From Amphiscolops sp. MND2022 (taxonomy: Eukaryota), in NCBI GenBank assembly GCA_964187785.1, contig OZ076411.1, positions 86,614,001 through 86,678,000 of the forward strand: a DNA stretch of 64,000 nt, given 5' to 3'. The notes below the pieces were generated by a model. The model saw only the letters and a list, made by a program, of their open reading frames with translations, was not told the DNA's origin and searched no databases. Of the stretch, positions 17,209 to 44,266 are shown piece after piece. Made by a program: the position numbers and the translations under genes. How positions within the stretch are numbered: the stretch's first letter is position 1; each line of letters begins with the position of its first letter.

Positions 17209-17213
17209 ATTTT

Positions 17214-17880: not shown

Positions 17881-18021
17881 TCTTCAAAGATATCAAGATT
17901 CTCGCAAAGTATTCAATGTCAAGACCAGCTCAAAGTGCAAAGAAATGTCAAGTAACGTTAAGCCAAGTAAGGAAAAAGAGCTCTGAAACAGCAACAAAAA
18001 ACTACGTGATCAAAAGCCAAA

Positions 18022-22800: not shown

Positions 22801-23504
22801 GTCAACTCACTCACCAAAGAAGCCCGGCTTTCTACCCTACAACGTTTTATTTTGCTCGCCGCGGACTACCAAGTGCCATCTACAGTAACAAATCTCGAAC
22901 CTTTACAGGAACACACGCTGAACTCGAAGTACAACGGATGTTAGCAGAACAAAACATTACCGAGTCCCTTGAACCCTTCACAGCCTATCACAAGATTCAA
23001 TGGCTCACAATCCCGCCACGTTCACCCCACTTCGGCGGTCTTTGGGAAGCAGCCGTTAAGTCTTTCAAACGACATGTTCTAAAAACCACAGGCAAGACAA
23101 CTCTACCTCTAGAAGAATTAACAACATTACTGCCCCAAATCGAAGCCATTATGAATTCTCGTCCATTAACTTCACCATCCAATGACCCAAACGACTTTCC
23201 AACACTAACACCTGCACACTTCCTAATTGGACGACCACTGCTGACAGTTCCATACTCTGATCCACCCGACAAAGCGGACCTCACACTCATCAGAAGATTC
23301 CAACAACGCCAGCAAGCATCAATTTTTTTCTGGAAACGATGGTCCTTAGAATATCTCACAACTCTTCAACAGCGAACTAAGTGGACAGCGGAACAAGAAA
23401 ACCTGCAAATTGGAGACATCGTTTTCTTGAGGACGTCACCAATGATGTGGCCGATGGCTAAAGTCATTAAAGTTTTAATGGGAATGACCAATTGTCTGCG
23501 TTGA
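19668..23504 (+). pseudogene. pol: BEL/Pao pol (RT, RNase H, integrase) broken by frameshifts and stops
   Basis: YLPHHCVLK..TTKLRMVFDAS, ADIAKMYRQV, YVDD, LHCFCDASTTAYAAVVY, IPRLELCAA, WTDSKITLAW, NPADCASR, HLHCLHGG, TGLDYCGP, PHFGGLWEAAVKSFK spread over several frames. Confidence 0.92.
21835..22010 (+). repeat. GAA/CAA-rich simple repeat inside BEL/Pao pol
   Basis: Runs of gaagaagaa and caacaacaa between the RNase H and integrase segments. Confidence 0.85.
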
Positions 23505-24140
23505 TGAAATCCGGACCCGAAGAGGATCATACGTGCGGCCAGTCCATCGGCTATCATTATTCCTTCCGGCAGAAGTATCCCATGGAAACAACCAAGACAT
23601 CAACCAGTAACAAAGTCATCAACGAAAAAGAAACTTGCAGCATTGGATTGGTTTCAAAGTTAACAACAAAGACCAGAAGATAAAAACTAAAGATAAAGAT
23701 AGCAATCCTACATCCAGTTTTCATTTACCTCATCATCGTAACGTAACTATTCAACAACATCATTAACAGATTTTCAAGAAACGAAGTAATCGCATAAATT
23801 CCCTGTAAAACAAGTTTCATTATTTAAATGAGCTTGTTTTTTGGTTCTTCCAAAAACGTTTACACCCAGTTCCGTCCTTCTTCGTCACGCCGTTTTTGTT
23901 TATTCCGTATTTGTGTTATATTATGGGTACTGGGTCTTGTTTTTTGTCTCTACTGCTCTTCAATTGGAACTTGGTATGGATACCCGTCGTGTCAACTATT
24001 CAACTTAACCAAAGCTTAGTATAAATTCTTTTTTCAAAACAATGCCTTTTTTTCACTAAGTCATACAAATGCTACTTTGTACCCTGTATGTTTGCAGGAC
24101 CTCCACCAAGCTATTGAACCCGTTCAAGGGGGCCTGTATA

Positions 24141-24271
24141 TGTTGACAGTAAGAACTCCAAAACTTCATACTCTGAAACTCAAACTTTACTGACTTCTAT
24201 TTCCACCATTTTTCTAGTTTGTTCACTCTTTCTCAATTCCACTCTTCATTCAAGTTGCTTTACTCAAACCA
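24141..24271 (+). repeat. BEL/Pao 3' LTR (131 bp)
   Basis: Near-copy of 17077-17208; preceded by purine tract AAGGGGG at 24126-24132. Confidence 0.93.
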
Positions 24272-26658: not shown

Positions 26659-27970
26659 GTAAGCCAACTTAGCCTTCTACTTTGTGATAAAACTGTTAAA
26701 AACTAGTTGTGTTATTGTTCTAATTTCTTATAGTGAGTACATAAGAAGTCTAAGTTTCTTAACAGTGGTATCGTCTAAGTTCTAAGGTACTACTAGCTAG
26801 CTATTTCTATTTTCAATATCTCTGAGATCTCAGTTTGGTCCTTCTTCGAAGAGGAGACTCTTCTTCAGTTAAGATCCTATTTTTCTCCGAGTAGATATGT
26901 TCTACAATTTCATTAATGATTATAGTTATTTAAATTTTCTTCTAATCAATCAGAAGCGACAACAATAAGATGGGTTACTAATGACATTATCCCAAAATGT
27001 TGATTAGGTATTAATGAAGTTATCTTCAAGTGTCAGCAATCTAGTAAACTTCAATTATTTTCGAAATGGAGTGACATCTGTCTTTATAAAAGTGAGTGAT
27101 TTCAAATTTAGATAAATATTTGAAAGTTCTTGAGGACATGCATCATGTCATCACAGATAACAAAATTGTAATGAAAATGAGGATTTTGTTATTGGACTAC
27201 TATACCATTATGGGTGGGAAAGATTGCCAAATGTTCTTTTTTTTATACTAATTTTTGAGCAACCAAAAAATCAAAGGAACAAACCTTCCGCAAGTTTTTT
27301 TAAGGCAAGAACTCCACTGCCAGCCGTACGTGCTGTTGTCGTGAATGGTTTGCAGGATTCACAAGAATTTGAACCGTTTTTCAAAATGTGTCCAAATACC
27401 ATGTTCTCAGATGAAGTGACCTACTTTTAGCTCAAATATTTTAAAAAGTTATCAAGTAGCCTAAGTCAGGAAAAAAGCAAGAAAAGATATCGTGATGCGT
27501 CATATTTGTTTCGAATCAAAATCATTGAAACTCCGTTTACAAAAGTTATCAACCAACCAAAAATTTTTAACACTCACGCTCCTACTCAGTTTTACATCAC
27601 AGAAAATTGTTACCTCTCGTCTTAAATATTTTACGTTTCCCGTTTTTTCGCGTTTTGCGTTTTCATTCTACTAAGGGCTACTGAAAGGCCTAGCGATTAC
27701 CGCTGATTACTTTGACTGGTGACGGGGCCTCTAGAACCGGAGTTTTGAGCAGGAGTCCCGCACTAGGCCAATTTATTGGACACATAATGCCCCTTGTTTT
27801 TTGGAACTGTGCTGCTCTTTCCTGTTTCTTCAAATCCGAGGTTCCCCTTTTTGAGATTTAGCTATGAAAAAGACTTTTTGCTAGCGGAATACATCCCTAG
27901 GGTTATTTGGCATTGTGCGACGTACCTAAGGAAATTATTCACGAAAATATTTTTTGGAAAAACAATGCAG

Positions 27971-29461
27971 TGTCGCACGCATGGATAAATTTCAGTTCTA
28001 CTTTTTTACAGTTTCCTCTTTTAGAGGGGAATTCCAAATTTGTTATCCGTATTAGTCAGCTCAGCTGTTACAACATTTTGCAAAGTGCTTTTCAGACAAC
28101 TGTTGTTTTATTGAAGTAGAACAAGTAGAAAAGTCTCAATAACTTAATTTTTTGTAATACCGAAAAGAAAGTGCCTTGCGTGTACGTGCGAACAAAGGAA
28201 CTTGCGTGAGTAAGTGCAAGGCAGTGAATGTAAATGAGCTCTCTGAACTATAAAAAAAAAGCATATGTTAGCAAACTTGTTGAATTACATAAAAGAGCTG
28301 AACTTCAGGACATAATAAAATTCTTCAGACATAACAGTTTTTATTCAACTGTTTACAATATTCAGTCAACTCACCAAATTTATTTACCAGCAACAGAAGT
28401 AATAACTTAGCTATTTCAATCTAGGGCACAAATTGATGAATACATTTAGCATCGAAGGAAATTCATAGTAATTTCCTTTAGTTCGAAGAAAGTTTTTTAC
28501 GAAAAATTCAGTTTCGGTGTTGTAATAACTTAGACAACACTATTTAATTTTATAGTCTCTACTCCTTTTCTTTTAGGAATAGCATTAAGACTTTTTTGAA
28601 TATGGGAATGGTAAAGACAAATTGGTTAATAGGGGAAAACCGCAGAATTAAATCAGCGAAATTATTCTAAGATATAATTTTAACAACCGCAGAATTGAAT
28701 CAACGGAATTATTATAAGATAGAATCCGCGGAATTAAATCAGCGGAATTATTCTAAGATATAATTTAGTTAGAAAGAGGGAGAGTAAAAAAATCTCCTCT
28801 AAAAGAAAAAATCTAAGATATTTTCGACTCACCAAACTGGAGACCAAGTTGAATTGAAGAGAATTTTCTAAGATAGAAAATTCTGTTGGGGAATAGAGAA
28901 AAAGCAAAGATAAGTTTTTACTTGAGAGAAGGGAGAAAAGGAGGAAAGTTAGACTTTATAAGTCAGAGATAAGGCAAGTGCAAAGTAAGCAAAGAGAAAG
29001 TTGGGGAATAAGAGTCGAGGGAGAGAAGGGGAAGAGTATGTGTAAGAGAAGTGGAGGGATTGAGAAGTTGAGGAGAGAGAGAGCTGTAAGTTGAGCTCAG
29101 CCGTCCGGCGGGAAAGAATGAATCTCCAGCCTGTGCGCGCGGTATAAAAACAGTTCAGCACAGCTGTTGAAGTGCCTGGCCGGCATGTGTTGCATGCTAC
29201 CAATGGTAGCTCAGCTTTAAAATTCAAATATCCGCGGTAAGAAATAGAAATTTTCACTAGTGCAATTCCTTTCCCGTAGTATTCCATTACTTATTACTCC
29301 ACTTCGAGGCCGCCGCGTTATGGCCGCCGCCATATTTACTTCAACTTTCCACTCTCCACACAACGTTAGTTCAAGTTTTATGTTTCTCTTTGCACGTGTT
29401 ATTTTTTTATAATAGAAAGCGCCTTTTGGTGATTCGTTAGAGCGTTAGTCATAGCGCGACA
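27971..29461 (-). repeat. 3' LTR of the gypsy element
   Basis: Copy of 44270-45760 at offset 16299; minus-strand TATAAAG at 28954-28960 and AATAAA at 28340-28345 and 28107-28112. Confidence 0.97.
28640..28766. repeat. Three ~40-47-bp repeats inside the LTR (also 44939-45065)
   Basis: ccgcagaattaaatcagcg(a/g)aattattctaagata unit starting at 28640, 28687 and 28726. Confidence 0.8.
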
Positions 29462-29473
29462 GCTCACCCCCCT
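29462..29473 (-). promoter_or_regulatory. Polypurine tract
   Basis: Minus-strand AGGGGGGTGAGC directly abutting the 3' LTR start. Confidence 0.8.
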
Positions 29474-29575: not shown

Positions 29576-30478
29576 CTAGGGTTTAGAAAAAAGGGGTCTG
29601 TCAAATTGAATTTGGATTATGACGGAGTCATTGTTTAGGAAGGCTTCTCTAAAGTTTACCAGGAGTTTTGTGTGCGCGATGAAGTCTTCTCTCATCAGTC
29701 CTGGGAGTGTGTAGTCGTTCTTGTGCGGGTCTTCATACTCTTCTGTTTTGGAGGGATAGGGAAAGGAGATGGACCATTTGTTGTTCTTGTCTTTTTGGTC
29801 TATGATTGAGACGATCAATTGTTGCTCGAAAGGCCACGTTCGTGGGAGAGTGAAGTCGCTGGGGTGTAGATCACAAGAAATTGAGGAATGGGTTCCGCGG
29901 AAGATGTTGGCGCCATAAGGGAATAGTCTGAGGGATATTTTGCAGCCGGTTAGGTGGGTAGTGTAGATAGGGCTAGTGAAGCTATTTTTGATGTTGTTCA
30001 ACGCATCATTCGGGGAGGTCTTTGCTTTTCTGTATAGTGTGGAAAAAGCGGGTATGTGCCAAAGGATGGGTTCACCGCTTCTTGCGTCTAATACGTTGGT
30101 TTTGTTGAGTAGGGCGCCTTGAAACTTGATTGTCGCTTGTAGATCGGATATTGTGAGTTCCAAGTGATTACATTTAGTCCGCGTTTCTTCTGTCAAGTTT
30201 TGGAGTTGTTTCATTTCACTAGCAAGCTTTGTTCTAGACTGTTTTATGTCGGTTATGGGGAACGATTTCCTTAGGATCGGGGTTACCTTTTCACTTTGTG
30301 GGCTAGTTGAGACTTCTAGTTCAGCGATCCATTTGTTCAATCTTTTGATTCCCTCGAGTGTCTCGAGGTCATCTTTATTCTCTGTCCTGGATAGAGGTGG
30401 CCAGTCGTTAGCTTTGGGGAAGTAAGGAGTGCTTTTTGGGATGAAGGGGATAGCGTCTGGGTTTAGCCTCCGATTCAT
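29576..30478 (-). CDS. PAM2 motif + coiled coil + TRAF-type MATH domain protein (300 aa), retroelement accessory gene
   Basis: N-terminal RRLNPDAIPFIP (PAM2 LNPxAxxFxP); heptad region LASEMKQLQNLTEE...LELTISDLQATI; TRAF-C motifs GEPILWHI, FTSPIYTT..GCKISLRLFPYG...RGTHSSI, WPFEQQLIVSIIDQ, FIAHTKL, FLNNDSVIIQIQFD. No RING or zinc fingers. Confidence 0.9.
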   Translation of the reverse strand: MNRRLNPDAIPFIPKSTPYFPKANDWPPLSRTENKDDLETLEGIKRLNKWIAELEVSTSPQSEKVTPILRKSFPITDIKQSRTKLASEMKQLQNLTEETRTKCNHLELTISDLQATIKFQGALLNKTNVLDARSGEPILWHIPAFSTLYRKAKTSPNDALNNIKNSFTSPIYTTHLTGCKISLRLFPYGANIFRGTHSSISCDLHPSDFTLPRTWPFEQQLIVSIIDQKDKNNKWSISFPYPSKTEEYEDPHKNDYTLPGLMREDFIAHTKLLVNFREAFLNNDSVIIQIQFDRPLFSKP

Positions 30479-31077
30479 TGTGCTGAGATGGCTCTTAGGG
30501 GGACCGTTAGTCTTTGTCCCTTTAGGGCTGGGTTCTCTATGGTGTACTCTTGTCTCTTGTTATCCCAGAAAACGATTTTCCAAGTTGAGAATTGTGGGAG
30601 GAGAGTGTATTTCAACTCTGTGTTGAATCTGGGTTTCTTAACGTGTCTGGCTCGTTTAGTGAAGTACTCCCGCTTGTGTTGTTTCTTCAGTGGCGTGTCA
30701 TCTGTTATTTTGTCATTCCATTGTTGTTGGTGTTTCCTGGGTAGTGCCCGTCTTATGTCTTTTCCGCCGAAGCGGGGTGGATGTTGGGGCGATCGAGGTG
30801 GATGTTGAGTTGATGGGATAGGCGCTACCTCTTCTGTAAATGACAGCGGAAAGGGGAGTTGTAGTGATGTCGTTGGAGAGGGTGTTGTTGTTAGGGCGCT
30901 TGGAATCGGAGAAGGAACTGTTGAGTCTGGGGGATCTAGGAGAAAGGTAATAGTTGTGGGAGAAGCAGTTGACAGCAGGTCAGAAGGTGATAAGGGTTCT
31001 ATCTGCAAGTCGTCTTCTAAGATAGAGTTAGGGATGTCGTCGTCCAGGTTTGGGAGGTCGAATAAGGGTTCTAAATT
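30475..31077 (-). CDS. AUG-less open frame (~200 codons): acidic/Pro-Thr-Ser-rich N-part, basic NLS-like segment, small beta-rich C-terminal domain; probably a spliced exon
   Basis: Open from 31077 to TGA 30475 with no Met (the track start at 31008 is TTG); tttag acceptors at 31078 and 31071; stop overlaps the next AUG (AUGA). Confidence 0.6.
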   Translation of the reverse strand, partial: NLEPLFDLPNLDDDIPNSILEDDLQIEPLSPSDLLSTASPTTITFLLDPPDSTVPSPIPSALTTTPSPTTSLQLPFPLSFTEEVAPIPSTQHPPRSPQHPPRFGGKDIRRALPRKHQQQWNDKITDDTPLKKQHKREYFTKRARHVKKPRFNTELKYTLLPQFSTWKIVFWDNKRQEYTIENPALKGQRLTVPLRAISAQ

Positions 31078-31108: not shown

Positions 31109-33256
31109 TCATATTGGAGCAACAAAGCTCTGTACCGAGGGATATAGTGATTCCTCTTTTTGTTTTAGGATTTGGAGTTCTACTCCTTTTTCTTCGTCTT
31201 CTGTTTTTACCCTTTTGTCTTCGATGCTATCCTCGAAAGGGGCCCGCGGGGTAAATACGGAAGTTAAAACAGAGGTAAAGAAAAGGTTATACGAAGCACT
31301 GAGCAAGGTTTTAGTGAAGCTCAGTGTGTTACCCGTAAGGTGACGAAGTTCGAAGTAGCGGAAGACTAGTACCGTGATATCTATGACGAACTTGATAAAA
31401 AGGAAAGCGCCAAAGTACGCTCCGCAGAGTTCTAGTACATAAGATATACTTCCGAATGTTTCGAGGAACTGATTTTTAAAGTAGTCGGGTGAAATCATTC
31501 CGTCGACATAGAAATCTGTACGAGGTGCGTAATACGCGAAGGATTCTGGTCCGCTGTGGGCCATGGAGGGTATGATGAGCTCTCTTGAGAACTTCTGGAG
31601 GGCATTACGTGATGCGGCGCTGATGAGGATGTTGTCCCAAAACTCGGAGAGTTGCTTGGGAGTGTACATTCCCGCGTCCTGTGATCCTGGGAAAGATCTG
31701 GTAATCATTGGCTGGATGTCTTTGGGTCCGAAGATAGCAGGCCGGTCCCGATGTTCGGGTGAAGGTGTAAGGGTGAACCAGGAGTCCTTGTCTTCCATGT
31801 CCAGTTGGAAGAGGTTCTTAATACGATCTGTGCAGTTTTGTACGTTCGCGTTAGGATATGTTTGTCGGGTTATGGGGTCTACAAAGGCGACCACTCCCTT
31901 GTAGAAGATTGGTATGCGGTCGTAGCATTGGTTCATCGTGTGAAGAGGTGAGTGGGATTCCGGGCAGTGGTAGAGCCATGCGAGGCTACCATCTGTGTTC
32001 AGGAACATCGAGCGATTTCCCGTGAGCATGTATCCGGCGAGTCGTGGGTTTTCCATGGATAACATCAGGATGGTAAGGATTTGTGTTCGTTCTTGCTCAC
32101 ATTGAGCTTTCAATAGCTGGATCTCTGAAGCTTCGAGTAAGCGGGTGCTCTCAAAGAAGAGATAATCTAACTTGGTTCCTTGGTGGAGTTCGTAATCCAT
32201 GTTGAGATAATGTGGTGTGTTGGGGTTGGAGTCGCTGGGGCCTCTGAAGAGGTGGAGTCTGCCATTACCAGAACCATCGTTGGGTGAGTAATATTGAAGT
32301 TTGGAGGTTTCTCCCATGGAGATGCCGAGTCGTCTGCCAGAAGTCATGTCGAAGCCACCAAATTGGGTCGAAACGTAGAGGGATTCGTAATTGGTAGGGT
32401 AGACATCATCGGGTTTGTTGCAGTATTTCTGTGGCCTGTTGTATATTTCGAATAGGAACTTGGTAGTGGAGTCGTTGCCGCTAACTATATAGTAGTTAGA
32501 GCCATGTTTGATCATATTCACTATTTCTTTTCTGTGGACTGCGAGCACGCAGTTATCTGGCTCTGCCCATGTATAGGCGTACGGGTCCAATGACGTGGTT
32601 TCGCAGCCGAGTTGTTCCAGGGGGCAGGGGAGAACCATCTGGAAGGGTGTGAGGATTTTCCCGTCTCTGGTTTTGACTGATAATTCTACGTCTTGAATAT
32701 GAGATTCGAAGGTTTCGCGTTTAATCCATCCGCCTGTCTTGCACTCATTACGGGTATCAGGGTCACGTACTCCATCCCAACTTTTTCCGTATTTGGCGTT
32801 TCTCGTCTGTACTTGTTTGACTCCTTTCTTAAATTTGAGGGGTTGTCCATGGATCATGACTTCTTTGCCTTCGCCCATGGCCTTACAGGTTTCGGGTGAC
32901 AAGGAAATATCGCTGGTGATTCCGTTGTGTAGGATTGACATACTGGAGTGGTCATTATGACCACAATGCCATTCTTCACTCTGGTGTTTCACACGGCACA
33001 TAGTAGCGTTGATAGTGCGACGAAAGTGTTTAGTGTATAACGTCACGCTAGCACGACTTACTTCTAAGTTTTCCGGGGCCACATTGCATTGCTCTACTTG
33101 ATTTAAGGCGTAGAGCTTATTTTGTGTCATTTCGCCGCAGTCGAAATGAGTTACTCGCAATTTTTTAGCAACGCTAGCGAGGTTTGGCGTTGAACGTTGT
33201 GAGTTCACAACGGGCGCGAAATTGGCGCATAAGAAGAGTAAGAAAAATAATTTCAT
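31109..33256 (-). CDS. env: Envelope glycoprotein, chuvirus-G-like / class III fusion type (715 aa)
   Basis: Signal peptide MKLFFLLFLCANFAPVVNS; HFDC..x..LYALNQVEQC; CRVK..x..HCG; MDYELHQGTKLDY; QCEQERTQILTILMLSMENPRLAGY; DGSLAWLYHCP; QCYDRIPIFY...FVDPITR...NC; C-terminal TM ISYVLELCGAYFGAFLFIKFVIDITVLVF. Confidence 0.88.
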   Translation of the reverse strand: MKLFFLLFLCANFAPVVNSQRSTPNLASVAKKLRVTHFDCGEMTQNKLYALNQVEQCNVAPENLEVSRASVTLYTKHFRRTINATMCRVKHQSEEWHCGHNDHSSMSILHNGITSDISLSPETCKAMGEGKEVMIHGQPLKFKKGVKQVQTRNAKYGKSWDGVRDPDTRNECKTGGWIKRETFESHIQDVELSVKTRDGKILTPFQMVLPCPLEQLGCETTSLDPYAYTWAEPDNCVLAVHRKEIVNMIKHGSNYYIVSGNDSTTKFLFEIYNRPQKYCNKPDDVYPTNYESLYVSTQFGGFDMTSGRRLGISMGETSKLQYYSPNDGSGNGRLHLFRGPSDSNPNTPHYLNMDYELHQGTKLDYLFFESTRLLEASEIQLLKAQCEQERTQILTILMLSMENPRLAGYMLTGNRSMFLNTDGSLAWLYHCPESHSPLHTMNQCYDRIPIFYKGVVAFVDPITRQTYPNANVQNCTDRIKNLFQLDMEDKDSWFTLTPSPEHRDRPAIFGPKDIQPMITRSFPGSQDAGMYTPKQLSEFWDNILISAASRNALQKFSRELIIPSMAHSGPESFAYYAPRTDFYVDGMISPDYFKNQFLETFGSISYVLELCGAYFGAFLFIKFVIDITVLVFRYFELRHLTGNTLSFTKTLLSASYNLFFTSVLTSVFTPRAPFEDSIEDKRVKTEDEEKGVELQILKQKEESLYPSVQSFVAPI

Positions 33257-33336
33257 TGTTGAAATTCTTCAGTCTGTTTTTGAATCAACCGTGTAATCGC
33301 TCCCTGTTAAAGAATCAGTTTAAGTGTTTAGTAGAG

Positions 33337-33788
33337 ACCGTAAAGAGGCAAGCCGTAATATCAAACCGGCAGCTTAGCTGGCACAACACTAAGCGGAGGT
33401 TAAAATTTTATAGTAGTAACCTCACTACTGTTAAAACGTGCCGAGGGGAACGATAAGTATTTTATTATTTCAGGGAAATAGGTGTGTGTTCCAGAAAGGA
33501 GGATTCGTAGTAAGGCCGTAAAAAGGCAAGTCGTAATATCAAACCGACAGCTTAGTGGGCACTAGCACTAAGCGGAGGTTAAAATTTTATAGTAGTAACC
33601 TCACTACTGTTAAAAAAGTGCCGAAGAGTAGGTTAATTATTGAAGCTTTAGTATATTTTATTATTGAGGATCCGTTATAAGGCCGTAAAAAGGCAAGCCG
33701 TAATATCAAACCGGCAGCTTAGTGGGCACTAGCACTAAGCGGAGGTTAAAATTTTATAGTAGTAACCTCACTACTGTTAAAAAGTGCC
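33337..33788 (-). ncRNA. Three tandem copies of a ~107-nt structured cis-RNA module (double pseudoknot plus two hairpins) upstream of env
   Basis: Copies at 33337-33442, 33515-33622 and 33682-33788; complementary segments AGUAGU/ACUACU, GAGGUU/AACCUC, GCUUAGUG/CACUAAGC, GGCAC/GUGCC, GCCG/CGGC; compensatory change GCCG/CGGC to GUCG/CGAC in the middle copy. Confidence 0.75.
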
Positions 33789-33833
33789 AAAATAGGAAGT
33801 TAAAAGAGACTAACTTCAACCATTGCTGAAAGT

Positions 33834-34178
33834 TCAATTGTAGTTGTCACGGATTGATTGTAGACTGGGAGAGGTTTTGTTTCGTCGTCTCAATTCGAGG
33901 AAGTCAATGAGCTTGTTGAGGAGGAACAGTGTTAGAGGGTGGATGTGGTCGAGATAGGCAATTTGCCTATATTCCTTTAGTGCGAGTGAGAGATCAGTAG
34001 CCTCTTGGGAGTTGGTGTCAACTGGGATGAGCCAATGTCCTGGGTTTTGTGGTCGGAGGCTATGGAGTTCGATTTGTAGTGAAGGTGCGTTTTCTTTCCA
34101 AGCGATAGAGAGAATTTCGAGAAGTGTATTTGTTTCAGGGTGGCGCCAGAGAAACTTGAGCTGAATCTTAAACATCAT
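33834..34178 (-). CDS. Small accessory ORF A4 (114 aa), unknown function
   Basis: ATG-initiated, overlaps the A3 stop by 11 nt, same A/C-rich sense-strand composition as gag-pol, shares a motif pattern with A1-A3. Confidence 0.65.
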   Translation of the reverse strand: MMFKIQLKFLWRHPETNTLLEILSIAWKENAPSLQIELHSLRPQNPGHWLIPVDTNSQEATDLSLALKEYRQIAYLDHIHPLTLFLLNKLIDFLELRRRNKTSPSLQSIRDNYN

Positions 34179-34563
34179 AAGTGTCGACTAGGCTGTGAAG
34201 GTATTTGATTCTAACTTCTTCTTCAAAGGGGTTGGAGGTGAGAGTGATGTCCATAAAGTAAACCAAGTCGTCGAAAGCCTTGTCTTTGAGGACTGCAGGG
34301 TGTTGGAGTATATATTGCTTGAACGATAGGAATAAGTAAGCGTATTCCTTGGAGCCGAAGTGAATAGGGAAGAGGACTAGAGCTTCTTTGTCTTCTGGTG
34401 TGAGTATACGCACTTGAATTGCAGAGGTAGTGATCTCGTAGAAGATTGACTGTATTTCGTATTGGCCCTTGAGTTGTATGGGGGTCCAAGGAACAGGAGG
34501 TTGAAACTGTGTGTGGAAGTAGTAATTATTTCCGCGGAACACGGCGACTGCGGGAGAGGACAT
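34168..34563 (-). CDS. Small accessory ORF A3 (131 aa), unknown function
   Basis: Starts in a TAATG stop-start overlap with A2. Confidence 0.7.
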   Translation of the reverse strand: MSSPAVAVFRGNNYYFHTQFQPPVPWTPIQLKGQYEIQSIFYEITTSAIQVRILTPEDKEALVLFPIHFGSKEYAYLFLSFKQYILQHPAVLKDKAFDDLVYFMDITLTSNPFEEEVRIKYLHSLVDTYDV

Positions 34564-34784
34564 TAAATGACTGACTTGGCTCTTGTGACGACTTCAGTAG
34601 GGGTGTTGTTATATAGCAAGCTCTCCAGTAGAGGGTAGATGGGTGATGCTGGCACACAAGTGTAGGTTTCACTTTCTTCTTCAGCTATTGCGTATGCTTG
34701 TATGATGATGTTTTGCGTTGAGGGTTCCTTCTGGATATCGGTGATTTGTGAAAGACGGTTGTCAATTTTGAAGATTATGATCAT
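34563..34784 (-). CDS. Small accessory ORF A2 (73 aa), unknown function
   Basis: ATG directly preceded by acceptor-like tatctcacag; ends in TAATG. Confidence 0.6.
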   Translation of the reverse strand: MIIIFKIDNRLSQITDIQKEPSTQNIIIQAYAIAEEESETYTCVPASPIYPLLESLLYNNTPTEVVTRAKSVI

Positions 34785-35029
34785 CTGTGAGATACTTCAG
34801 TGTTCACTGTTGTTCAAACATAGCAAATCTGAGAATGGAATCATCAGTTATTTCATTGCCTTTGGGAACTTATGTATTTGAAACATATGAACATGACCCT
34901 TTTTGGGGCACATGGTTGCATGCAGAAAAGTAAAGAATCGACATTGGTCTGTATTGTGTGATAGTGAGGTATATGATTAAATAAATAGGTGTTATAAATT
35001 TCTATTACTAGGTATTTATATAGTTTTAC

Positions 35030-35731
35030 ATGACTTTTGATAAGCACAATGTTGTGTTTAGAATGAGCAACAATCAGAACTTTTCGGACTACTACGAGGA
35101 GTCCTCGACCGACGAAGAGTCGGGGAATGGCCCGACAACTGTGTCTTCTAGTTCTTCTGCAGCTGGTCCGTCCTCTGCTGCTGTTAGTGCTGTGTCCTCC
35201 GCTTCGTCTTCTGCTGGTCGGCCCTCTACTGCTGTTAGTTCTGTGTCCCCTGCTTCTTCAGCAGGTCCGTCCTCTAGTGGTGGGTCGTTCGTGGCGGTTG
35301 TGGCCCCGAGGACTGACAGTATTGTGCCTCAAGCGCCTGCTACTATTGCCCGGGGAGAGCTGGAGAACCCGGCTGAGCAGAGCTTTATGGGGCTCTATAC
35401 CCGCCGAGACGTGAACCGCCTGGAAAACTGGGCGTCTCTAACCAGTTCTCTTCGGGGGACTCCAGGGTTCTCTGTCTCGGGGCCTCCCGGTCCCAATTCA
35501 TTATTTAGTTTCATGCGGGCTAACCTGGGGGCCCGTTGGGAGCAGACCCTATTGTCCCCTCTTGGTGAAATCATAATTTTCCAGTTGCGAGCCTACATAA
35601 ACGGCTTTTCGCAACTGACCAGTTTCGAGAGGGGACAGTGGTCCCGTCTGTATTCTTTGTGGACCATGGGAGAGCGGGCGGCTCAGCTGCGGCGCTTGGC
35701 GGAGCGAGGAGGGTTCCTGGAGATTGAGTAG
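35030..35731 (+). CDS. Antisense accessory ORF (222-233 aa; Ser/Ala-rich N-half, predicted helical C-domain)
   Basis: 702-nt open frame opposite to all other element ORFs; second ATG at 35063 directly follows tttag. Confidence 0.65.
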   Translation: MTFDKHNVVFRMSNNQNFSDYYEESSTDEESGNGPTTVSSSSSAAGPSSAAVSAVSSASSSAGRPSTAVSSVSPASSAGPSSSGGSFVAVVAPRTDSIVPQAPATIARGELENPAEQSFMGLYTRRDVNRLENWASLTSSLRGTPGFSVSGPPGPNSLFSFMRANLGARWEQTLLSPLGEIIIFQLRAYINGFSQLTSFERGQWSRLYSLWTMGERAAQLRRLAERGGFLEIE

Positions 35732-35888
35732 GCGTACATCGCCTCTCATCTCCAGGAAATTACTATTTTTCTATGCTTCTGTGCTTGTGGCTTTTCGTAA
35801 GTCATGTTCGGGATTGCACAAAAAATATCGATAAACTAAAGTAAAGTAAATTAATGGTAATACATCGTTAATAGGTTAAATGTGCCGG

Positions 35889-36275
35889 CTAGGAGCTAGG
35901 TGAGGAAATAGTGGAGCAGCAGAATAGGTCCTTCTGAGTATTAGGTGGTGAAGGTTGTAGGTCAGGAATTAGGGTAGGCATGTAGGATAAGAGTTCTTCT
36001 AGGATAGGGTCGTGATGGTTGACTGCATGGTATGCTAGGTGTTGATATAGTTGAGCAAACGTTTTTGATTCTGGGTGAACATGAAGATTTGATTTTCGGG
36101 GCGTAGGTTGTTTGTGGGGGCTCGGGTCTGGGTCGTTGGAGTAGAAGCAAATTCTAACTAGTTTGTTTGTGTAGGTCCAGTAGATTTTTGTGATTGTAAC
36201 GTGTAGAACGTTTAAAGATTGGAGTTCTCGTGGAACTTGCCATGGTAGGTTTAGGTAAACTTTATGACAAGGCAT
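35889..36275 (-). CDS. Small accessory ORF A1 (128 aa), unknown function
   Basis: ATG 8 nt after the pol stop; shares a motif pattern with A2-A4. Confidence 0.65.
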   Translation of the reverse strand: MPCHKVYLNLPWQVPRELQSLNVLHVTITKIYWTYTNKLVRICFYSNDPDPSPHKQPTPRKSNLHVHPESKTFAQLYQHLAYHAVNHHDPILEELLSYMPTLIPDLQPSPPNTQKDLFCCSTISSPSS

Positions 36276-36283
36276 GACGCAGA

Positions 36284-39200
36284 TTAGGCTTTGTAGCCTA
36301 CTCGAGTTTTTTGTCGAAGTATGGACAATGGTGCTGGTTGATTGGGTTGTGCTCGCTGATAGCGGGGATTTCTCTCGACGTGACTTGCCACCGCTCGTCT
36401 GAGTTCTTGTAGGGGTGTCAATGATTTAGTCGAAGTCGTCGGAGTGGTAGTCAAGGGTTCGGGTGTTATTTGTTGCGTCAGTGTTTGGATAGGAGTAGTT
36501 GAACCAGGAGGACGGGATGTAGTAGGCTGATCCGGAGTTGTTGGTGTTCCCAACCGGTGATTTTCTGGGGAAATAATACCAGAGTCGGTGCTCTGGGGAG
36601 TTCTCACTCGTTTTTGTGCGGTGGTCTGTCTTTGTTGGTTTCGGACTGGTAAAATGCAGAGATCCCCGAGTATCTGTGGTTCTGAAACATTAAGTCGTTC
36701 TATTCTTCCTTTGACAAAATTGTTATAGAAATCCGTGTCTCCACGGTAGGGAGTTGTGTATTCTTCTATAAGAGGGGGGAGTGTTTCCTCTTTGGGAAAG
36801 TATTCTATTAAATGATTTCTATGGACAGTTCGGAGATTTTCGGGGTTCTGATCGTCTTTTATTTGGTATGTTGTGTTGGTGATTCTCTTGGTAACCGTAA
36901 ACGGTCCTAATCGCAGTTGTTGAAGTTTTTGACTTTTGGAGAGGTCTTTCCGATGGTTTTCTAACAAAACCTTTTGTCCGATGTTGAGATGGCTGCCTAG
37001 TTTAAATCTGTTTCTGTAGGCATGAGATCGAGCTGTTTGTTTTCTGCATTTTTCGTAAGTGGACGAATAGATTTTCTTGAAGGCGGTCTCTCTTTCAAGC
37101 AGGTTTTGAGATAGTTGAGGTCTTAATAGTCCATTCAGCAGTTCGTTTTTAACTTGGTTTTCGCTGTGGCAGTGAGGAGGCAGTCCGTTGCAGAACTGTG
37201 ATCTGCAATTCTTGTTTTTATTACGGTATAGACCCAACTTAAGACTCATAGGTATCTGTGGTTTATTGCAGAAGACTATTTCGTATGGTGTCTTTCCAGT
37301 GGTATAGTTGACGCTTGTGTTGTGGGCAAATGCGAATTTAGCAGCTAGTTGGGCCCAGTTGTTTCCTGAGTCGTTTAAGAAGTTTCTCCAGTACCTTGCA
37401 ATGTGTTGGTTTTGGGTTTCCACTTTTCCGTTAGTCCAGGGTGAGTGTGCAGTTCTTGGCCGGAGAGTGATGCCTAACTCTTTAGTCCAATTGACGAATT
37501 CAGTGTTTACGAAAGCCGTTCCTCTATCGTGTATGATAGACTGCGGTATCCCATAGTGCATAATCCATTTTTCCATAGCGTTGATTGTTGACTGTGCACC
37601 TGTGTCTCTAACTGGGTATGCCATCAAGTAGCGTGAAAATGCGTCGATGATGAGGAGGCAATGTGAATTTCCACGACTGGGAGGGTTGAGTGGTCCCTTG
37701 TGATCGATATGAACAGTTCTGAATACTTGGGTCTCGGTTTCACAGTCCTCCAGTGGGACTTCGTAATTTCTTCTTTGTTTGGATTTGTTAGATTGGCAGC
37801 TAACGCAATCTTGTGTGAGGGCACAAATCCAGTCGTGCATCCCGGGCCAGTAGTAGAATCTTTTAGCATTTAGGTAGGTTTTCTCGGCTCCCATATGGCC
37901 TCCGAGGTCGTTGTAGTGTCCTAATCGGAAGCAGGCGAGAAATAAGGAGAGTGGTAAGCATATTCGAAGATTTTCTTCTTCCGTCTTATCTGTAGGTTCA
38001 TTGTAGCACAGTAGGTTTCCGTTTTCTTCTATGGTCAATCTATCAAACTCTTGGGAATAGCGCATGAGTCCTTTAGAGTGTTGTAATTCTGGTGATTTTG
38101 GCGTAGGCCTGTTTCCGGTTTGTATCCATCGTCGAACCACACTGAGCACCGGGTCATTGATCTGTTCTTGTAAGATTGTTGTGACGTCTAGATCCACTTC
38201 TTTTGATATTTTGTCGAGTTGACTGACGAGCTCTCGGGCTGGGGTCTTGTGTTTTTCCGTTGAATTTGTAGGTAGACTGAGGTGTTCTATTGCCTTTGCA
38301 TTTTCGGGAATACCTGTGTTACGTGCGGTGAGATCTTCAGTGTTGAGCTCGTAGTTGGTCTCGTTTACTTCATGACTTTGGTTGTCTGTGCAGGCTTCAT
38401 CATCTGCATCGCTATTGATGGAGCTGTAAGTATTCTGAGACGAATCGGAAGTGCTATCCCTTGTCCCGGATCTGATTTTTAGCTCTGAAAATTTTCCTAG
38501 TTCTCTTCCAGCGTCGAGACAACTCTGTGCTGACTCTATTTTCGGCAGGTTAGGTTCCTCGTAGATATTGTTAACTGTGAAGTTATTTCCATCGTTTTGT
38601 AGGTGAAGAATTTTTCGTTCATCTCCTTTTTCGTACAGGATGGGGTAGAAATCGTTTTTTGACGTTTCTTCGTTTTCTTCGTGTTTTATTTTGTAGTGTA
38701 TTTGGGTTCCATGCTCGTCGAAGAAGTGAATATCGTTCGGTAGGATTTTGTGACTGAGTTGATGTTTTTTGTGTTCTTCTATCGATACGTTTCTGCTGAG
38801 TATATCAGGGAAGGCTAAATTGCTTCCTGGGGTCCAAATTATCTTGAGATTTGGGAATTTAGAGATTATTACTTGGTACCTGAAGAAACGCGGTGAAACT
38901 TGTCCTTTTCGTCCCCAGAGATAAAGAATTGGTTTGTGGTCACAATATAAGTAAATTGGAAAGGGAGATCCAATGATATAGTGTTCGTAGGTTTGTAATG
39001 CTGAGACTATTCCACATAGTTCTCTATGTAGAGTAGACATTTTTTGTTCTTCTTTTGCGAAGACTCTGGAATTGAAAGAAATGATCCGTTTCCCTTCTGG
39101 AAATTGTTGTATGAGGATACATCCTGTCCCTACGTTGGAAGAGTCGACGTGTATATGAAAGGGATATTTTGTTGAAGGTACTGCAAGAACTGTGTCTTCG

Positions 39201-41791
39201 CTGATTCTTTTCTTTATTTGTTGGAAGAGGTCTTCATGTTCTTGGTTCCAACAGAAATTTGTATCCTTTTTTGTGAGTTCGTAAAAGGGTCGACTATCGA
39301 CGTGAAGGTTCTTGATGTAGCAGCTGTAGAAACCTAAGGCTCCCAAGAAGCTTTTCACTTCGGTTTTGGTTTTTGGTGATTTGAGATTATGTAGGTCTCT
39401 TACTCGTTTAGCTACGGGTTGTATTCCTTCTGCTGCAATCACATGTCCCAAAAACTTGACTTTCCTCAAGAAGAAGAGTGTTTTGTCAGGTGCCGCTTTT
39501 AGTCCCGCTTTCCGTAGTAGGTTATGGTATTCTTGAATCACTGTGAACATTTCTTGTTTACTTTTCGCTTGCATCAACGTGTCGTCTATGTAGGTGATTG
39601 CTTGTTTCTTTTTAATGAGAGGTTCGAAGTGAATTGTCATCATTCGGCTAAAGAAGCTTGGTAACCCTTTAAGTCCGTAGAATCCTCTGGTGAAGGTGTA
39701 TTGTTTCCCGCCTATGATGAAGCTTGTAAGTTTTTGTGTAGGCTCGTCTAATGGGACTTGGTGAAATGCACAGGAGAGATCACTTACTGAGAAGATGTTC
39801 CCGTTGATTAGTGTCATTATGGTTTGGATCGGTTCTAAGGGCCAGGAGTAGTTTGTTAGATCCGTCACTGAATTTAGGTATCTTGCGTCTATGATCAGTT
39901 TTACATAGTCGTGTTTTGGTTGTAGTATAATAGGATTTACGAATAAGGATCCCATTTCGTCGTCATCGCCCATCTCTCTGATAATATCGGCGTCTTTGAG
40001 TTGTGTGAGTAGCTTCTCTAACTTTTCTCTTAGGTGAAGTGGTACTTTGCTGGGTCTCTGTCTCTTCAGGATTGCTCCAGGTTCGAGTTTGATGTTAAAT
40101 TTCTGTCTGGTTTTTCCTACGTCGAATTTGTGTTGGGAGTATACATCTCTCGCATCCATTAGTTGGTCTATTAGGAGCACAAGTTCCTCGTCAGTAAGGT
40201 CTGAGTAGCGAAAGTCGAATTCTTTGATGTATTGCACTGCTTCTTTGTTCTGGTACTGAAGGTAATACTCGATCAGTCTTTCGTTGTCTTCTTTTTGCCT
40301 GAAGATTTTAAATTGCTCATCGCAGGGTGGTTGACAAGACTTTGCGTCACTCGTAAAGTCTGTCTCCAGCTCTCTATGTTTAAGGTGAAATTGCTCGGAA
40401 AATTGTTGTATCTCGTCTTCCAGCGCGTATTCGGGGTCTCCTCTCGTAGTCATAGCATAGACGTCTAGTTCATTTCTTGTATAAATTCGGAGTTGTATTT
40501 CCGAGTAGGCAAAAACATCTTGAATAATTTGTGTCACATCTTGCCATTGGAAATCTTCTAGTTCTGACGCTTCTCGTAACATAGAAATGGTCTTGATACA
40601 ATTCATTTTGGCGTGTGCTTTTAGAGTCTCTAGCGTTTGGACTAAGATTTGTGGGTCGATTTTGTCTTTTGATTTAGCTTTTGTGATTAGGACGTATATG
40701 AATCGTTTTAGATTCATGTCCCAGTAAGGTATTGTATCCCCTTTGAGTGGTTTCTGTTTTGCGCAAGATTCTTTTAACAAGGGTATGTTCGTTAGGATTT
40801 CTTTCGAGAAGCCTTTGGCTGGCTTCAGATCTGCCGGGACAAAGATCATGATGGAGTCGGGTCTGCTGAGGATTGTAGTAGAATTTCCTCCTTCTATTCT
40901 GATGCAATCGTTCATATCTTGTGAAGGGATGGTGGAGTGCAACAGGAAACAGTCATTGTATTCTTCGTTTTCGTTTAGGATAGCGTAGGCGAGTTCCGTA
41001 GGGTTTCTAACTTGGTATTTTGGAATTTCTTGGTCTAATACGTCGAGCAGAGAGTATCCAATAGTTCCTTTTACTAGGGTGATTGTATGGTTTTTGTTAT
41101 TTTCCATGACGATTGGCAAAGTCTTCTCAAATCTTGTACAAAGGACATTTATAAAATTTAGTCCTGTAGAGACTGCTTTTCTGTTGGGTAGGAACGTAGA
41201 TCCGGGAGGAAAGGAGTTCTTGGGGTTTTCCGGTGCAAATTTGTAACATCTTGTCGTCTTTGGTTCGATATACATTGAGTGAGGAATTCGGACTGAGAGT
41301 ATTTGTGATACGTAGGGGTAACATTTGTTGAGTTGTAGACTGCCATAGCAGAAAGTATTTATAGGTCTTTTGAGTTCTATGCCAGGAAGATCAAAGTGTA
41401 TTTTGTTAACTTGTTCTTGACAGAAGTTCATTCCAAGGAGGTTTTGGGTCTTCATCTCTGTTATCCAGACTGTCAGTGGGAAGTTATGTTGTCCATCGGA
41501 ATCGTAGTAGAGTTTAAGGGTGATGTATCCCATCATAGGGATGATCTGCCCAGAGTAGTTCCGTGTTGTGTTGTTACTTCTGCTGAGTTCGAGGTCTTGT
41601 TGAAATTGACAGAGTTCTCTAAAGGTCCTGTAGTTAATGATTGAAGATGTTGCCCCAGTGTCTAGTAGAAATTCGATTTCTAAGCCACTATCTTTTTGTG
41701 AGTCTCCGGCAGCAAAATAATAAAGATTAAGACTAAATTTTAGTGGGGCAGTGCTGCTGTTACGGTTTTTCGGAGACCTTAATAGTTTAAA
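36284..41791 (-). CDS. pol: Pol (protease, macrodomain, RT, RNase H, integrase with GPF/Y tail), expressed by -1 frameshift
   Basis: Frame open from 41791: FLLDTGATSS (PR, near 41660), RT DLSCAFHQ / FYGL / YIDD / FLGH, RNase H HVDSS / RELCG / YCDHKP, IN HYNDLGGHMG..CVSC, HIDHKGP, IHDRGTAF, NGKVE, LGPFTV. Confidence 0.96.
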   Translation of the reverse strand, partial: FKLLRSPKNRNSSTAPLKFSLNLYYFAAGDSQKDSGLEIEFLLDTGATSSIINYRTFRELCQFQQDLELSRSNNTTRNYSGQIIPMMGYITLKLYYDSDGQHNFPLTVWITEMKTQNLLGMNFCQEQVNKIHFDLPGIELKRPINTFCYGSLQLNKCYPYVSQILSVRIPHSMYIEPKTTRCYKFAPENPKNSFPPGSTFLPNRKAVSTGLNFINVLCTRFEKTLPIVMENNKNHTITLVKGTIGYSLLDVLDQEIPKYQVRNPTELAYAILNENEEYNDCFLLHSTIPSQDMNDCIRIEGGNSTTILSRPDSIMIFVPADLKPAKGFSKEILTNIPLLKESCAKQKPLKGDTIPYWDMNLKRFIYVLITKAKSKDKIDPQILVQTLETLKAHAKMNCIKTISMLREASELEDFQWQDVTQIIQDVFAYSEIQLRIYTRNELDVYAMTTRGDPEYALEDEIQQFSEQFHLKHRELETDFTSDAKSCQPPCDEQFKIFRQKEDNERLIEYYLQYQNKEAVQYIKEFDFRYSDLTDEELVLLIDQLMDARDVYSQHKFDVGKTRQKFNIKLEPGAILKRQRPSKVPLHLREKLEKLLTQLKDADIIREMGDDDEMGSLFVNPIILQPKHDYVKLIIDARYLNSVTDLTNYSWPLEPIQTIMTLINGNIFSVSDLSCAFHQVPLDEPTQKLTSFIIGGKQYTFTRGFYGLKGLPSFFSRMMTIHFEPLIKKKQAITYIDDTLMQAKSKQEMFTVIQEYHNLLRKAGLKAAPDKTLFFLRKVKFLGHVIAAEGIQPVAKRVRDLHNLKSPKTKTEVKSFLGALGFYSCYIKNLHVDSRPFYELTKKDTNFCWNQEHEDLFQQIKKRISEDTVLAVPSTKYPFHIHVDSSNVGTGCILIQQFPEGKRIISFNSRVFAKEEQKMSTLHRELCGIVSALQTYEHYIIGSPFPIYLYCDHKPILYLWGRKGQVSPRFFRYQVIISKFPNLKIIWTPGSNLAFPDILSRNVSIEEHKKHQLSHKILPNDIHFFDEHGTQIHYKIKHEENEETSKNDFYPILYEKGDERKILHLQNDGNNFTVNNIYEEPNLPKIESAQSCLDAGRELGKFSELKIRSGTRDSTSDSSQNTYSSINSDADDEACTDNQSHEVNETNYELNTEDLTARNTGIPENAKAIEHLSLPTNSTEKHKTPARELVSQLDKISKEVDLDVTTILQEQINDPVLSVVRRWIQTGNRPTPKSPELQHSKGLMRYSQEFDRLTIEENGNLLCYNEPTDKTEEENLRICLPLSLFLACFRLGHYNDLGGHMGAEKTYLNAKRFYYWPGMHDWICALTQDCVSCQSNKSKQRRNYEVPLEDCETETQVFRTVHIDHKGPLNPPSRGNSHCLLIIDAFSRYLMAYPVRDTGAQSTINAMEKWIMHYGIPQSIIHDRGTAFVNTEFVNWTKELGITLRPRTAHSPWTNGKVETQNQHIARYWRNFLNDSGNNWAQLAAKFAFAHNTSVNYTTGKTPYEIVFCNKPQIPMSLKLGLYRNKNKNCRSQFCNGLPPHCHSENQVKNELLNGLLRPQLSQNLLERETAFKKIYSSTYEKCRKQTARSHAYRNRFKLGSHLNIGQKVLLENHRKDLSKSQKLQQLRLGPFTVTKRITNTTYQIKDDQNPENLRTVHRNHLIEYFPKEETLPPLIEEYTTPYRGDTDFYNNFVKGRIERLNVSEPQILGDLCILPVRNQQRQTTAQKRVRTPQSTDSGIISPENHRLGTPTTPDQPTTSRPPGSTTPIQTLTQQITPEPLTTTPTTSTKSLTPLQELRRAVASHVERNPRYQRAQPNQPAPLSILRQKTRVGYKA
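40480..40910 (-). other. TARG1/OARD1 (Poa1p)-like macrodomain inserted in Pol between PR and RT
   Basis: RFIYVLITKAKSKDKIDPQILVQTLETLKAHAKMNCIKTISMLREASELEDFQWQDVTQIIQDVFAYSEIQLRIY aligns by eye with the C-terminal half of human TARG1 (RYIYYLITK...LQKSLEAMKSH...[34 protein letters not shown]). Confidence 0.82.
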
Positions 41792-43233
41792 GGGCGAATA
41801 TCGGCGACAGAGTTCACCGAGTAATCTGTTTCGAGAAACTGTACGGTGTTATGTCTTCCCATGTCGTTAGTTCTAGGGAACCTTTGTTCGTAGGTTTGAG
41901 TGGGGGTGTTTGGTCTTTCGTTTCTGTTTTGTGGTCTATTAAAGACTGAGTTATTCCTTGGTGGAAGAGGCTGTATGTTGCGGTTGAAGGAGTTAGGCTG
42001 GTCTCTGTTGAAGCTGAACGGAGATCTTGCTCTTTGGGGCCCAGGAGAAACACTTCTGGAATTGTTAGAATTGTTTAGAAAAGGTCTTCTTCCTTCTTGT
42101 GAAAATCTTTGGTTACCAGGACTGAATCTTGTATTCATAGGTCGGCGTTCTGGGTTGAAATTTCTTCTTTGTGGTCTATCATATTGGTTCCGGGCAGGGT
42201 TTGACTGCATGGCTCCAGCAAGTGCTAGTTGATGTGCCACAGCCATATGTTTTCTGATTTCTGAATCGGGTAGTCTAGTTTGGAATCTAGAACCATGTCC
42301 AGGTCCAGTTCTTTTGTTGTAATCGTTGGTGAAAGTTATTCGTCTCTCTGGGTTGGATTCATTTTGAACTTTCTTGATTTCTTCATCTCTCATCTTCTTT
42401 CTGCACCAGTTAGGCGTATGCCCATTTGTTCGGCAGTAGCTGCAAAACCTGGTGGCCATTCTACGTCCTGTTGCGTTCGGATCAACAGTTTTCTCTATTG
42501 CATTGATAGTGTTGTTCGTCTGTTCTTTGATTTGTAGCTTGATTCCTTTGATGTCTTCTCGCAATTCTTGGATGAGTGGGTCTGCGTGTGATTCTCCACC
42601 GGTGAGAGAGGTAGTTACTGTGTAAGAAAGGTCTTTGTTTATTACAGCTTGAGAGAACTGCTCCCAGGTTGCATTCGGATGATCCATTAAGTATTCGTGT
42701 GCCTTTTCCCTCAGTTTCGGGGGTCGAAGGCCTCTCAGTGAGTAGTCAATGCACCTCTGTCTTCTTTGTCTGTCTTGTGCTGCTCTTTCGGCGTCTCTAT
42801 TGTTCTGTGCGACTCCGGCTAGATCATCTGGCCATCCTTTTCCGACTACTATTTTAATTCTGTGTAGGAAGTTCTTTATTTCTTCTCCATCTCGTCTGAT
42901 GACGTGTTCGGCTTCCATTCTGTGTCTAAATTTGTTTCTGCCATCTGCGAATCGCGTTATGAACCTCTCTCTGATTTCTACCCAAGTGTTAGCGTCTGTG
43001 ATGCTGGTCTCGAACCACTCTGCTGCGGGTCCTCTTAATAGTGTAGCAAAATAGGATTTTCTTCTGAAGTTGTAGTCATCAAGTGCTGGTCCGTTGGCCG
43101 GGGTATCACCGTGAGAAAACCGGAACTTCTTTTCAATGAGCTGTATGAATTGTTCAGGATCTTGATCTGGGTCTGTTCCTGTGAATTGGTCTCGGCCTAG
43201 GTCTGGATAAGCCAAGTAATTTTGCGCAGCCAT
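41779..43233 (-). CDS. gag: Gag (484 aa) with one CCHC knuckle
   Basis: Retrotransposon capsid-like LRGPAAEWF...W.EIRERFITRF; CSYCRTNGHTPNWC (CX2CX4HX4C); Arg/Asn/Pro-rich tail. Confidence 0.93.
   Translation of the reverse strand: MAAQNYLAYPDLGRDQFTGTDPDQDPEQFIQLIEKKFRFSHGDTPANGPALDDYNFRRKSYFATLLRGPAAEWFETSITDANTWVEIRERFITRFADGRNKFRHRMEAEHVIRRDGEEIKNFLHRIKIVVGKGWPDDLAGVAQNNRDAERAAQDRQRRQRCIDYSLRGLRPPKLREKAHEYLMDHPNATWEQFSQAVINKDLSYTVTTSLTGGESHADPLIQELREDIKGIKLQIKEQTNNTINAIEKTVDPNATGRRMATRFCSYCRTNGHTPNWCRKKMRDEEIKKVQNESNPERRITFTNDYNKRTGPGHGSRFQTRLPDSEIRKHMAVAHQLALAGAMQSNPARNQYDRPQRRNFNPERRPMNTRFSPGNQRFSQEGRRPFLNNSNNSRSVSPGPQRARSPFSFNRDQPNSFNRNIQPLPPRNNSVFNRPQNRNERPNTPTQTYEQRFPRTNDMGRHNTVQFLETDYSVNSVADIRPLNY
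41785..41791 (-). promoter_or_regulatory. -1 ribosomal frameshift heptamer U_UUA_AAC
   Basis: Gag reads CCT TTA AAC TAT TAA; the heptamer is in the correct X_XXY_YYZ phase and the -1 frame is the open pol frame. Confidence 0.8.
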
Positions 43234-44248: not shown

Positions 44249-44266
44249 GCCTCACTGGTCGCACCA
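44249..44266 (-). promoter_or_regulatory. Primer-binding site (18 nt)
   Basis: TGGTGCGACCAGTGAGGC begins 3 nt after the 5' LTR end; complementary to a tRNA-like 3' end ...GCCUCACUGGUCGCACCA. Confidence 0.85.

Follow-up and report, generated by a model that had tools for sequence, protein, structure and literature searches.

The window analyzed here is a 64,000-nt stretch of Amphiscolops sp. MND2022 contig OZ076411.1, and an open reading frame on its minus strand at 31109–33256 raises the question of whether a Ty3/gypsy retrotransposon has captured a chuvirus-type class III envelope gene and, if so, whether it did this independently. The original prediction, made from the sequence, proposed exactly this, on the premise that such envelopes are known mainly from BEL/Pao elements. 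That premise is out of date, and the novelty it conferred is removed, because Chary and Hayashi (eLife 2026, PMC13524379) report that gB-type env genes are widespread in Ty3/gypsy elements; using a mosquito BEL/Pao chuvirus-like glycoprotein as bait, they found 114 such gypsy elements. The accessible text of their study argues that env was acquired long ago and from a source other than baculoviruses, excludes a single origin of such env genes, and states that the entry mechanism of the elements is unknown. The view that ties such envelopes mainly to BEL/Pao is explained by an earlier survey (PMC10084718), whose accessible text describes most arthropod Jingchuvirales glycoprotein endogenous viral elements as flanked by gypsy fragments, without a clear case of capture by gypsy.

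An intact envelope gene

The env ORF occupies exactly 31109–33256 on the minus strand and runs from ATG to stop for 715 aa with zero internal stops. It is annotated as a predicted class III (gB/chuvirus-G type) glycoprotein on the combined basis of the ORF scan, Pfam, hydropathy, a structure model and an alignment. The hydropathy scan finds a hydrophobic N terminus at aa 1–21, with a predicted signal peptide at about aa 1–19, and a strong hydrophobic segment at aa 601–638 (peak 2.09) that is the predicted C-terminal transmembrane (TM) anchor, followed by a second, weaker hydrophobic helix at aa 650–669 and a short tail. With the helices in the structure model, this gives a type I topology of signal peptide, ectodomain and C-terminal TM. 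Thus, the intact frame, signal peptide and TM anchor of the original prediction all hold up. Env has 16 cysteines, 14 of them in the ectodomain (aa 40–475), and four N-glycosylation sequons. A furin-type motif was sought across the 715 aa and none was found, and the motif is also absent from 45 of 46 long env relatives.

Env relatives were picked for length and diversity out of 266 that were fetched, and 85 of them were aligned. Every one of the 14 ectodomain cysteines is retained in 90–98% of non-gap rows of this alignment, among relatives that span about 24–76% identity, and the 46 long relatives mostly retain the hydrophobic N terminus. Because the cysteines are conserved over such distances and the hydrophobic N termini are kept, these comparisons indicate long-term constraint on the env fold.

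A complete Ty3/gypsy provirus surrounds env

The env gene is part of a complete Ty3/gypsy element of 17.8 kb that has full provirus anatomy and open gag, pol and env frames. On the minus strand, it starts with a 1,491-bp 5′ LTR with TG...CA ends (44270–45760) and finishes with a 1,491-bp 3′ LTR (27971–29461) that is 100% identical to it. A 4-bp target-site duplication lies at 27967–27970 and 45761–45764, a primer-binding site beginning with TGG lies 3 nt internal to the 5′ LTR (44250–44266, minus strand), and a purine-rich tract immediately precedes the 3′ LTR (29462–29473, minus strand). The element therefore has all of the hallmarks by which LTR retrotransposons are recognized, namely TG...CA LTRs, a target-site duplication, a primer-binding site and a polypurine tract. 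The 64-kb window contains no tRNA genes to which the primer-binding site could be assigned. With identical LTRs and a 4-bp target-site duplication, the insertion is very recent, and the LTR identity could come in part from assembly collapse.

The gag gene (41779–43233, minus strand) encodes 484 aa with a CCHC knuckle and has a Pfam match of the Retrotrans_gag type that lies under the cut-off. Within the gag/pol overlap is a slippery heptamer, an in-phase X XXY YYZ (41785–41791, minus strand), at which a −1 frameshift would join the two frames. No strong RNA structure was found 3′ of this site (−8.6 kcal/mol over 80 nt, a value without a shuffle control). The pol frame (36284–41848, minus strand) is open for 1,854 codons and encodes, in order, a protease (PR), a macrodomain, reverse transcriptase (RT), RNase H (RH) and an integrase (IN) with a GPY/F-type tail.

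Env starts ~3.03 kb past the pol stop. The pol–env spacer (33834–36275) contains four small putative ORFs, of 128 aa (35889–36275, minus strand), 233 aa (35030–35731, plus strand and hence antisense), 131 aa (34168–34563, minus strand) and 114 aa (33834–34178, minus strand). Pfam gives no convincing family for any of the four (best E 0.062), nor do they occur among 398 fetched proteins; the 131-aa and 114-aa ORFs resemble one another weakly, at an E of about 0.03 that we do not count as a relationship. Nearer to env lie three imperfect direct repeats of ~170 nt each (33329–33803, minus strand), for which a regulatory role is a guess, and then a candidate splice acceptor, read by eye, with a branch point, pyrimidines and an AG ending at 33304 (33304–33325, minus strand), 48 nt before the env ATG. 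Downstream of env, a frame of 200 codons without an ATG and without a family match (30475–31077, minus strand) separates it from an accessory TRAF-like ORF.

The element belongs to a multi-copy family. A cluster with 96%-identical env has 128 member sequences, and one whose Pol is identical across RT-RH has 36, counts that may each pool several assemblies. There is no second env copy within the 64-kb window, and env is fused to Pol in none of 120 Pol matches.

This anatomy bears directly on the reading of the glycoprotein gene as a non-retroviral endogenous viral element that by chance came to lie in or next to a gypsy copy. Such a coincidence would recall the gypsy-flanked arthropod glycoprotein insertions of PMC10084718. 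Here, however, env lies between identical LTRs and inside the target-site duplication, on the same strand as an intact gag and pol and downstream of them; its base composition is that of the surrounding element, its family is large and multi-copy, and in another database record env is joined to the TRAF-like ORF. We regard a chance insertion as very improbable and as already largely refuted by these observations.

Pol is of the Ty3/gypsy type

The original prediction that the carrier is Ty3/gypsy and not BEL/Pao is borne out by Pol. Its Pfam domains are of the gypsy type, and Pfam and motifs together give the order PR-RT-RH-IN. Of 14 PDB matches to this RT, the best is that of Ty3 (E 6.5e-30), and the named Pol matches outside the element's own clade include gypsy/412-type polyproteins at ~24–31% identity. 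The domains DUF1759 and DUF5641 are associated with BEL/Pao elements. Pfam finds neither in this gag and pol, and finds both in a separate relic in the window (18010–23504).

In a quick RT-RH tree, the element belongs to a clade of 33 rows that has zero named members and is set apart by a long stem (1.67 changes per site, SH-aLRT 100). This tree was made from 73 of 108 long matches without BEL or copia outgroups, and so it displays a long-stem clade and does not classify Pol. A sister Pol group (P0299–P0349), at ~44% RT identity, has single Gag-Pol frames of up to 2,742 aa with the protease ~1,200 aa in, and its clusters have up to 2,153 member sequences.

Env is predicted to be a class III fusion protein

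Pfam assigns env to one family, PF24664 Monjiviricetes_fusion, at an E of 5.1e-31 (107.8 bits versus a cut-off of 27), which is far beyond chance, and 15 of 15 distant env relatives that were scanned match PF24664 alone. Sequence-only searches of the PDB, with the env protein or with an 86-row profile, gave nothing significant.

Env was modeled twice. The first model, full length and from 50 alignment rows, was good only over about aa 60–310 and weak through the C-terminal half (pLDDT 56.5). For that reason, a deeper alignment of the ectodomain (aa 22–607, 86 rows) was folded, which gave a pLDDT of 81.5 and a pTM of 0.57. With the first model, all 42 of 42 rows among the Foldseek PDB matches listed are herpesvirus gB (best E 4.2e-8), at a whole-chain TM of just 0.12–0.13. 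With the ectodomain model, VIA comparison with 48,161 solved chains places gB in the best seven rows (Z 9.5, rmsd 15.0, 428 aligned), followed by the G proteins of the rhabdoviruses Chandipura and rabies and the GP of Bourbon virus; Thogoto GP and GP64 rank further down. The solved class III fusogens share 9–16% identity with env. At the level of domains, the solved-structure matches are to gB domain IV and a PH-like domain, and domain IV of pseudorabies gB taken alone superimposes at an rmsd of 3.4 over 154 aligned residues (Z 6.3, VIA). By these matches, the model has the class III fold common to gB, G and GP64, which is characterized by an extended beta fusion domain set within a PH-like domain, a long central helix and a beta crown; whole-chain superpositions are poor (rmsd 12–15 Å in VIA).

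Among predicted viral structures, the best BFVD match to the ectodomain model is the G protein of Tacheng tick virus 4, of the Chuviridae (E 2.5e-31, 17% identity), and the second is a chu-related virus G (E 4e-31). Xinmoviruses (3e-28 and 3e-27) and a qin-related virus also belong to the best matches, and the first herpes gB appears at rank 25 (E 1.4e-14). Over the best nine rows, identity to env is 12–17% and whole-chain TM is 0.42–0.51. Since chuvirus and xinmovirus G come first among the viral models and gB first among the solved structures, we conclude that env is, by its predicted fold, a class III fusion protein. The searches that might have overturned this part of the original prediction, by placing proteins other than class III fusogens first, instead returned gB and chu-/xinmovirus G, in line with the PF24664 match. 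What needs adjustment is the chuvirus label. A Chuviridae G is indeed the best BFVD match, but Chuviridae, Xinmoviridae and qin-related viruses are interspersed in the ranking, and because the xinmovirus and qin-related glycoproteins score almost equally, the label is slightly too narrow; env is closest to Monjiviricetes glycoproteins in general.

Env is thus like the G proteins of Chuviridae and Xinmoviridae (PF24664) in its best profile family, its best predicted-structure matches, and its similar length and layout, and unlike them in being encoded by a retroelement, not by a negative-strand RNA virus, and in the low identity just given. It is like herpesvirus gB, rhabdovirus G and thogotovirus GP/baculovirus GP64 in that these are its best solved-structure matches, but, unlike in the herpesvirus gB system, the element has no gH/gL-like partners.

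We infer that env has fusion activity. The fusion-loop positions were placed from secondary structure alone, and by that placement the predicted tip of the first loop reads H-N in env, while the first of these two residues is hydrophobic in 27 of 62 relatives; a hydrophobic residue occupies position 96 in 60 of 61 rows and position 178 in 73 of 75. The polar tip in this copy counts against fusion activity and would fit a different reading, in which env is intact yet no longer a particle fusogen. On this reading, spread would be intracellular, and env would either ride along in a copy that is still young or serve another role, such as blocking receptors or mediating contact between cells. Open frames are to be expected in any young insertion, whatever their function, and many env relatives in the databases are fragments, one of them having the env C terminus fused to the TRAF-like ORF. 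Against this, 14 of 14 ectodomain cysteines are conserved across relatives at the identities given above, and the long relatives have mostly held on to a hydrophobic N terminus. We consider the loss of fusogenic function quite unlikely, and we favor env as a fusogen.

The element is of the gB-type errantivirus kind, probably with an old envelope

A Ty3/gypsy POL with intact GAG, POL and gB-type ENV is the definition of an HSV/gB-type errantivirus in PMC13524379, and this is what we find. Therefore, env belongs to a published kind of Ty3/gypsy element, the pairing of gypsy with a gB/chuvirus-type env is already known, and it is no longer surprising. As in the elements of that study, there is a Ty3/gypsy Pol with LTRs, a primer-binding site, the order gag-pol-env and multiple copies, and the gB-like env, class III by prediction, has a signal peptide, a TM, conserved cysteines and no need of a furin site. 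The element differs from them in its greater size (17.8 kb), in the macrodomain built into its Pol and in its additional ORF of the TRAF-C type; the words TRAF, MATH, macro and accessory are absent from the main text of PMC13524379. The survey in that study used filters of a 1-kb gap and a 3-kb extension, and because env here begins ~3.03 kb downstream of the pol stop, past both limits, this element may have escaped it. The elements may be akin to ones in acoel worms. The phylum list in the accessible part of PMC13524379 does not include Xenacoelomorpha, and a 10-nt piece of the primer-binding site was not found in its master table; the lineage may nevertheless be among its elements. Anakin-type BEL/Pao elements (Dezordi et al., as far as the accessible text describes them) likewise use a chuvirus-like class III glycoprotein as the env of an LTR retrotransposon, but the carrier here is Ty3/gypsy and is without DUF1759 and DUF5641.

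The remaining part of the original prediction is that a gypsy lineage captured a Monjiviricetes (chu-/xinmo-like) glycoprotein independently of BEL/Pao and of the other gypsy gB-type envs. The ranking of chu-/xinmovirus G far above herpes gB in BFVD (E 1e-31 versus 1e-14) would fit such an event, as would a Pol clade with a long stem and zero named members in the quick tree. However, identity to the best nine viral matches is only 12–17%, lower than among env relatives, and a chuvirus-like glycoprotein beside gypsy pol already occurs in the 114 elements of PMC13524379. Overall, we find an independent capture somewhat doubtful. The env family is deep, with 1,232 clusters at E ≤ 0.001 and full-length members down to about 27–30% identity, and because the family spans this many clusters while its best viral matches are so distant, the sequences make a recent env capture unlikely. 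We conclude that the env–pol association is probably old, rather than newly taken from a chuvirus. An ancient, separate acquisition of env is possible; it would fit the published picture and would not be surprising.

TRAF-like and macrodomain passenger genes

The less usual features of the element, namely its accessory TRAF-like and macrodomain genes and its long-branch Pol, lie outside the ORF that was originally noted. The accessory ORF (29576–30478, minus strand) encodes 300 aa with a PAM2-like N terminus, a predicted helical or coiled-coil middle and a TRAF-C/MATH domain. The last of these matches Pfam MATH_2 (E 9e-12) and, in the PDB, TRAF5/4/3/2/1 (best E 1.7e-7), whereas RING and zinc-finger domains have no Pfam match in the ORF and six relatives. 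The PAM2 match on the first 30 aa reaches 16.1 bits versus a cut-off of 20 (E 0.009) and is not listed for the full-length protein; it recurs at an E of 0.014–0.057 in five of six relatives, the sixth having no N terminus. Relatives of the accessory ORF number 12 among 349 candidates, at 57–98% identity. In one database record, the env C terminus (93% identical over 106 aa) is joined to the TRAF-like ORF, apparently by deletion, and thus the linkage of env to the TRAF-like ORF is shown in another copy.

The macrodomain region between PR and RT (40451–40888, minus strand) is TARG1/OARD1-like (E 3.6e-10). It is present in 8 of 120 Pol matches, all of which fall inside a 10-row subclade around this element, and the PR–RT distance is 539 aa with the macrodomain versus 354–383 aa in most relatives that lack it, with two exceptions at 449 and 461 aa. 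The GCGLD loop of the macrodomain is kept in five sister copies and has been lost in this copy and its closest relatives.

Each type of passenger domain has precedent in other retroelements. The giant planarian gypsy element Burro/GYPSM1 (PMC6431247) also combines env with MATH_TRAF_C, which in one species forms a separate accessory ORF. Unlike here, the Burro env is gypsy Env-like (F-type) and in frame between gag and pol, and the Burro TRAF domain is upstream, alongside BIR, BCL2 and ankyrin domains. Macrodomain ORFs have been noted in fish endogenous retroviruses (PMC4977317). Among the top-listed papers of our literature searches, which do not extend to subscription journals or Repbase, none describes TRAF-C, a macrodomain and a class III env together, and the same holds for searches on acoel env elements; the accessible text of 10.1101/2021.11.30.470311 does not bear on the subject.

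RING-less TRAFs act as dominant negatives. A tentative reading, which we would not yet bet on, is that the element represents an undescribed, deep and "complex" lineage of enveloped gypsy elements. In addition to a working class III fusogen, such a lineage would have a RING-less TRAF-C protein that serves as a dominant-negative decoy of TRAF immune signaling and whose PAM2 tail could bind poly(A)-binding protein, together with a macrodomain of the TARG1 type that counters ADP-ribosylation; its host group or genome architecture would have been missed by the published survey, and its env may have been acquired separately. If the TRAF-like and macrodomain passengers are indeed immune antagonists, accessory genes would have evolved in an invertebrate gypsy lineage much as in complex retroviruses. 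The value of the find is mainly in these accessory genes and in its use as a test substrate, since a copy this young, its LTRs identical and its frames open, would be well suited to the first experiments on the function of a class III fusogen from a retroelement.

Proposed replication cycle

We consider it probable that the ORF is the env gene of an HSV/gB-type errantivirus, an intact Ty3/gypsy element that inserted very recently into an invertebrate-type animal genome and has a fusogenic particle cycle and an old env–pol association. In this cycle, transcription from the 5′ LTR would produce genomic RNA, from which Gag and, through the −1 frameshift, Gag-Pol would be made. Env would come from a spliced or subgenomic RNA, with the candidate acceptor at 33304, and would enter the ER and be glycosylated to form a trimer anchored by its TM. 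The trimer would presumably be uncleaved, since neither env nor 45 of its 46 long relatives has a furin motif. Env trimers would then be taken into budding particles, and the particles would fuse with the target-cell membrane through class III refolding, for which the trigger, by analogy with rhabdovirus G and GP64, is probably endosomal acidification. The element would in this way move between host cells, most plausibly towards germline or stem cells.

Other features of the window

The relic mentioned above is a broken BEL/Pao-type element (17077–24271, plus strand) with DUF1759, DUF5641 and terminal repeats that are 95% identical over 132 nt; it contains a 61-nt tandem array at 17410–17892 and a low-complexity stretch near 21800–22010. 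Direct repeats at 3045–3602 and 13667–14233 are 83% identical and 10.6 kb apart, and between them lies a degraded integrase (6837–7202) with a weak tblastn match to this Pol; together, these are probably an older LTR element. On the other side of the provirus, an AIG1/GIMAP-like GTPase frame followed by a coiled-coil-like frame (49766–51546, plus strand; Pfam AIG1 E 1e-7) is possibly a host gene or pseudogene. Beyond an N gap near 52040–52190 are tandem arrays with periods of ~97 nt and ~197 nt (53845–55534), and a frame at 58712–59227 on the minus strand may be the C-terminal end of an ORF from a non-LTR retrotransposon.
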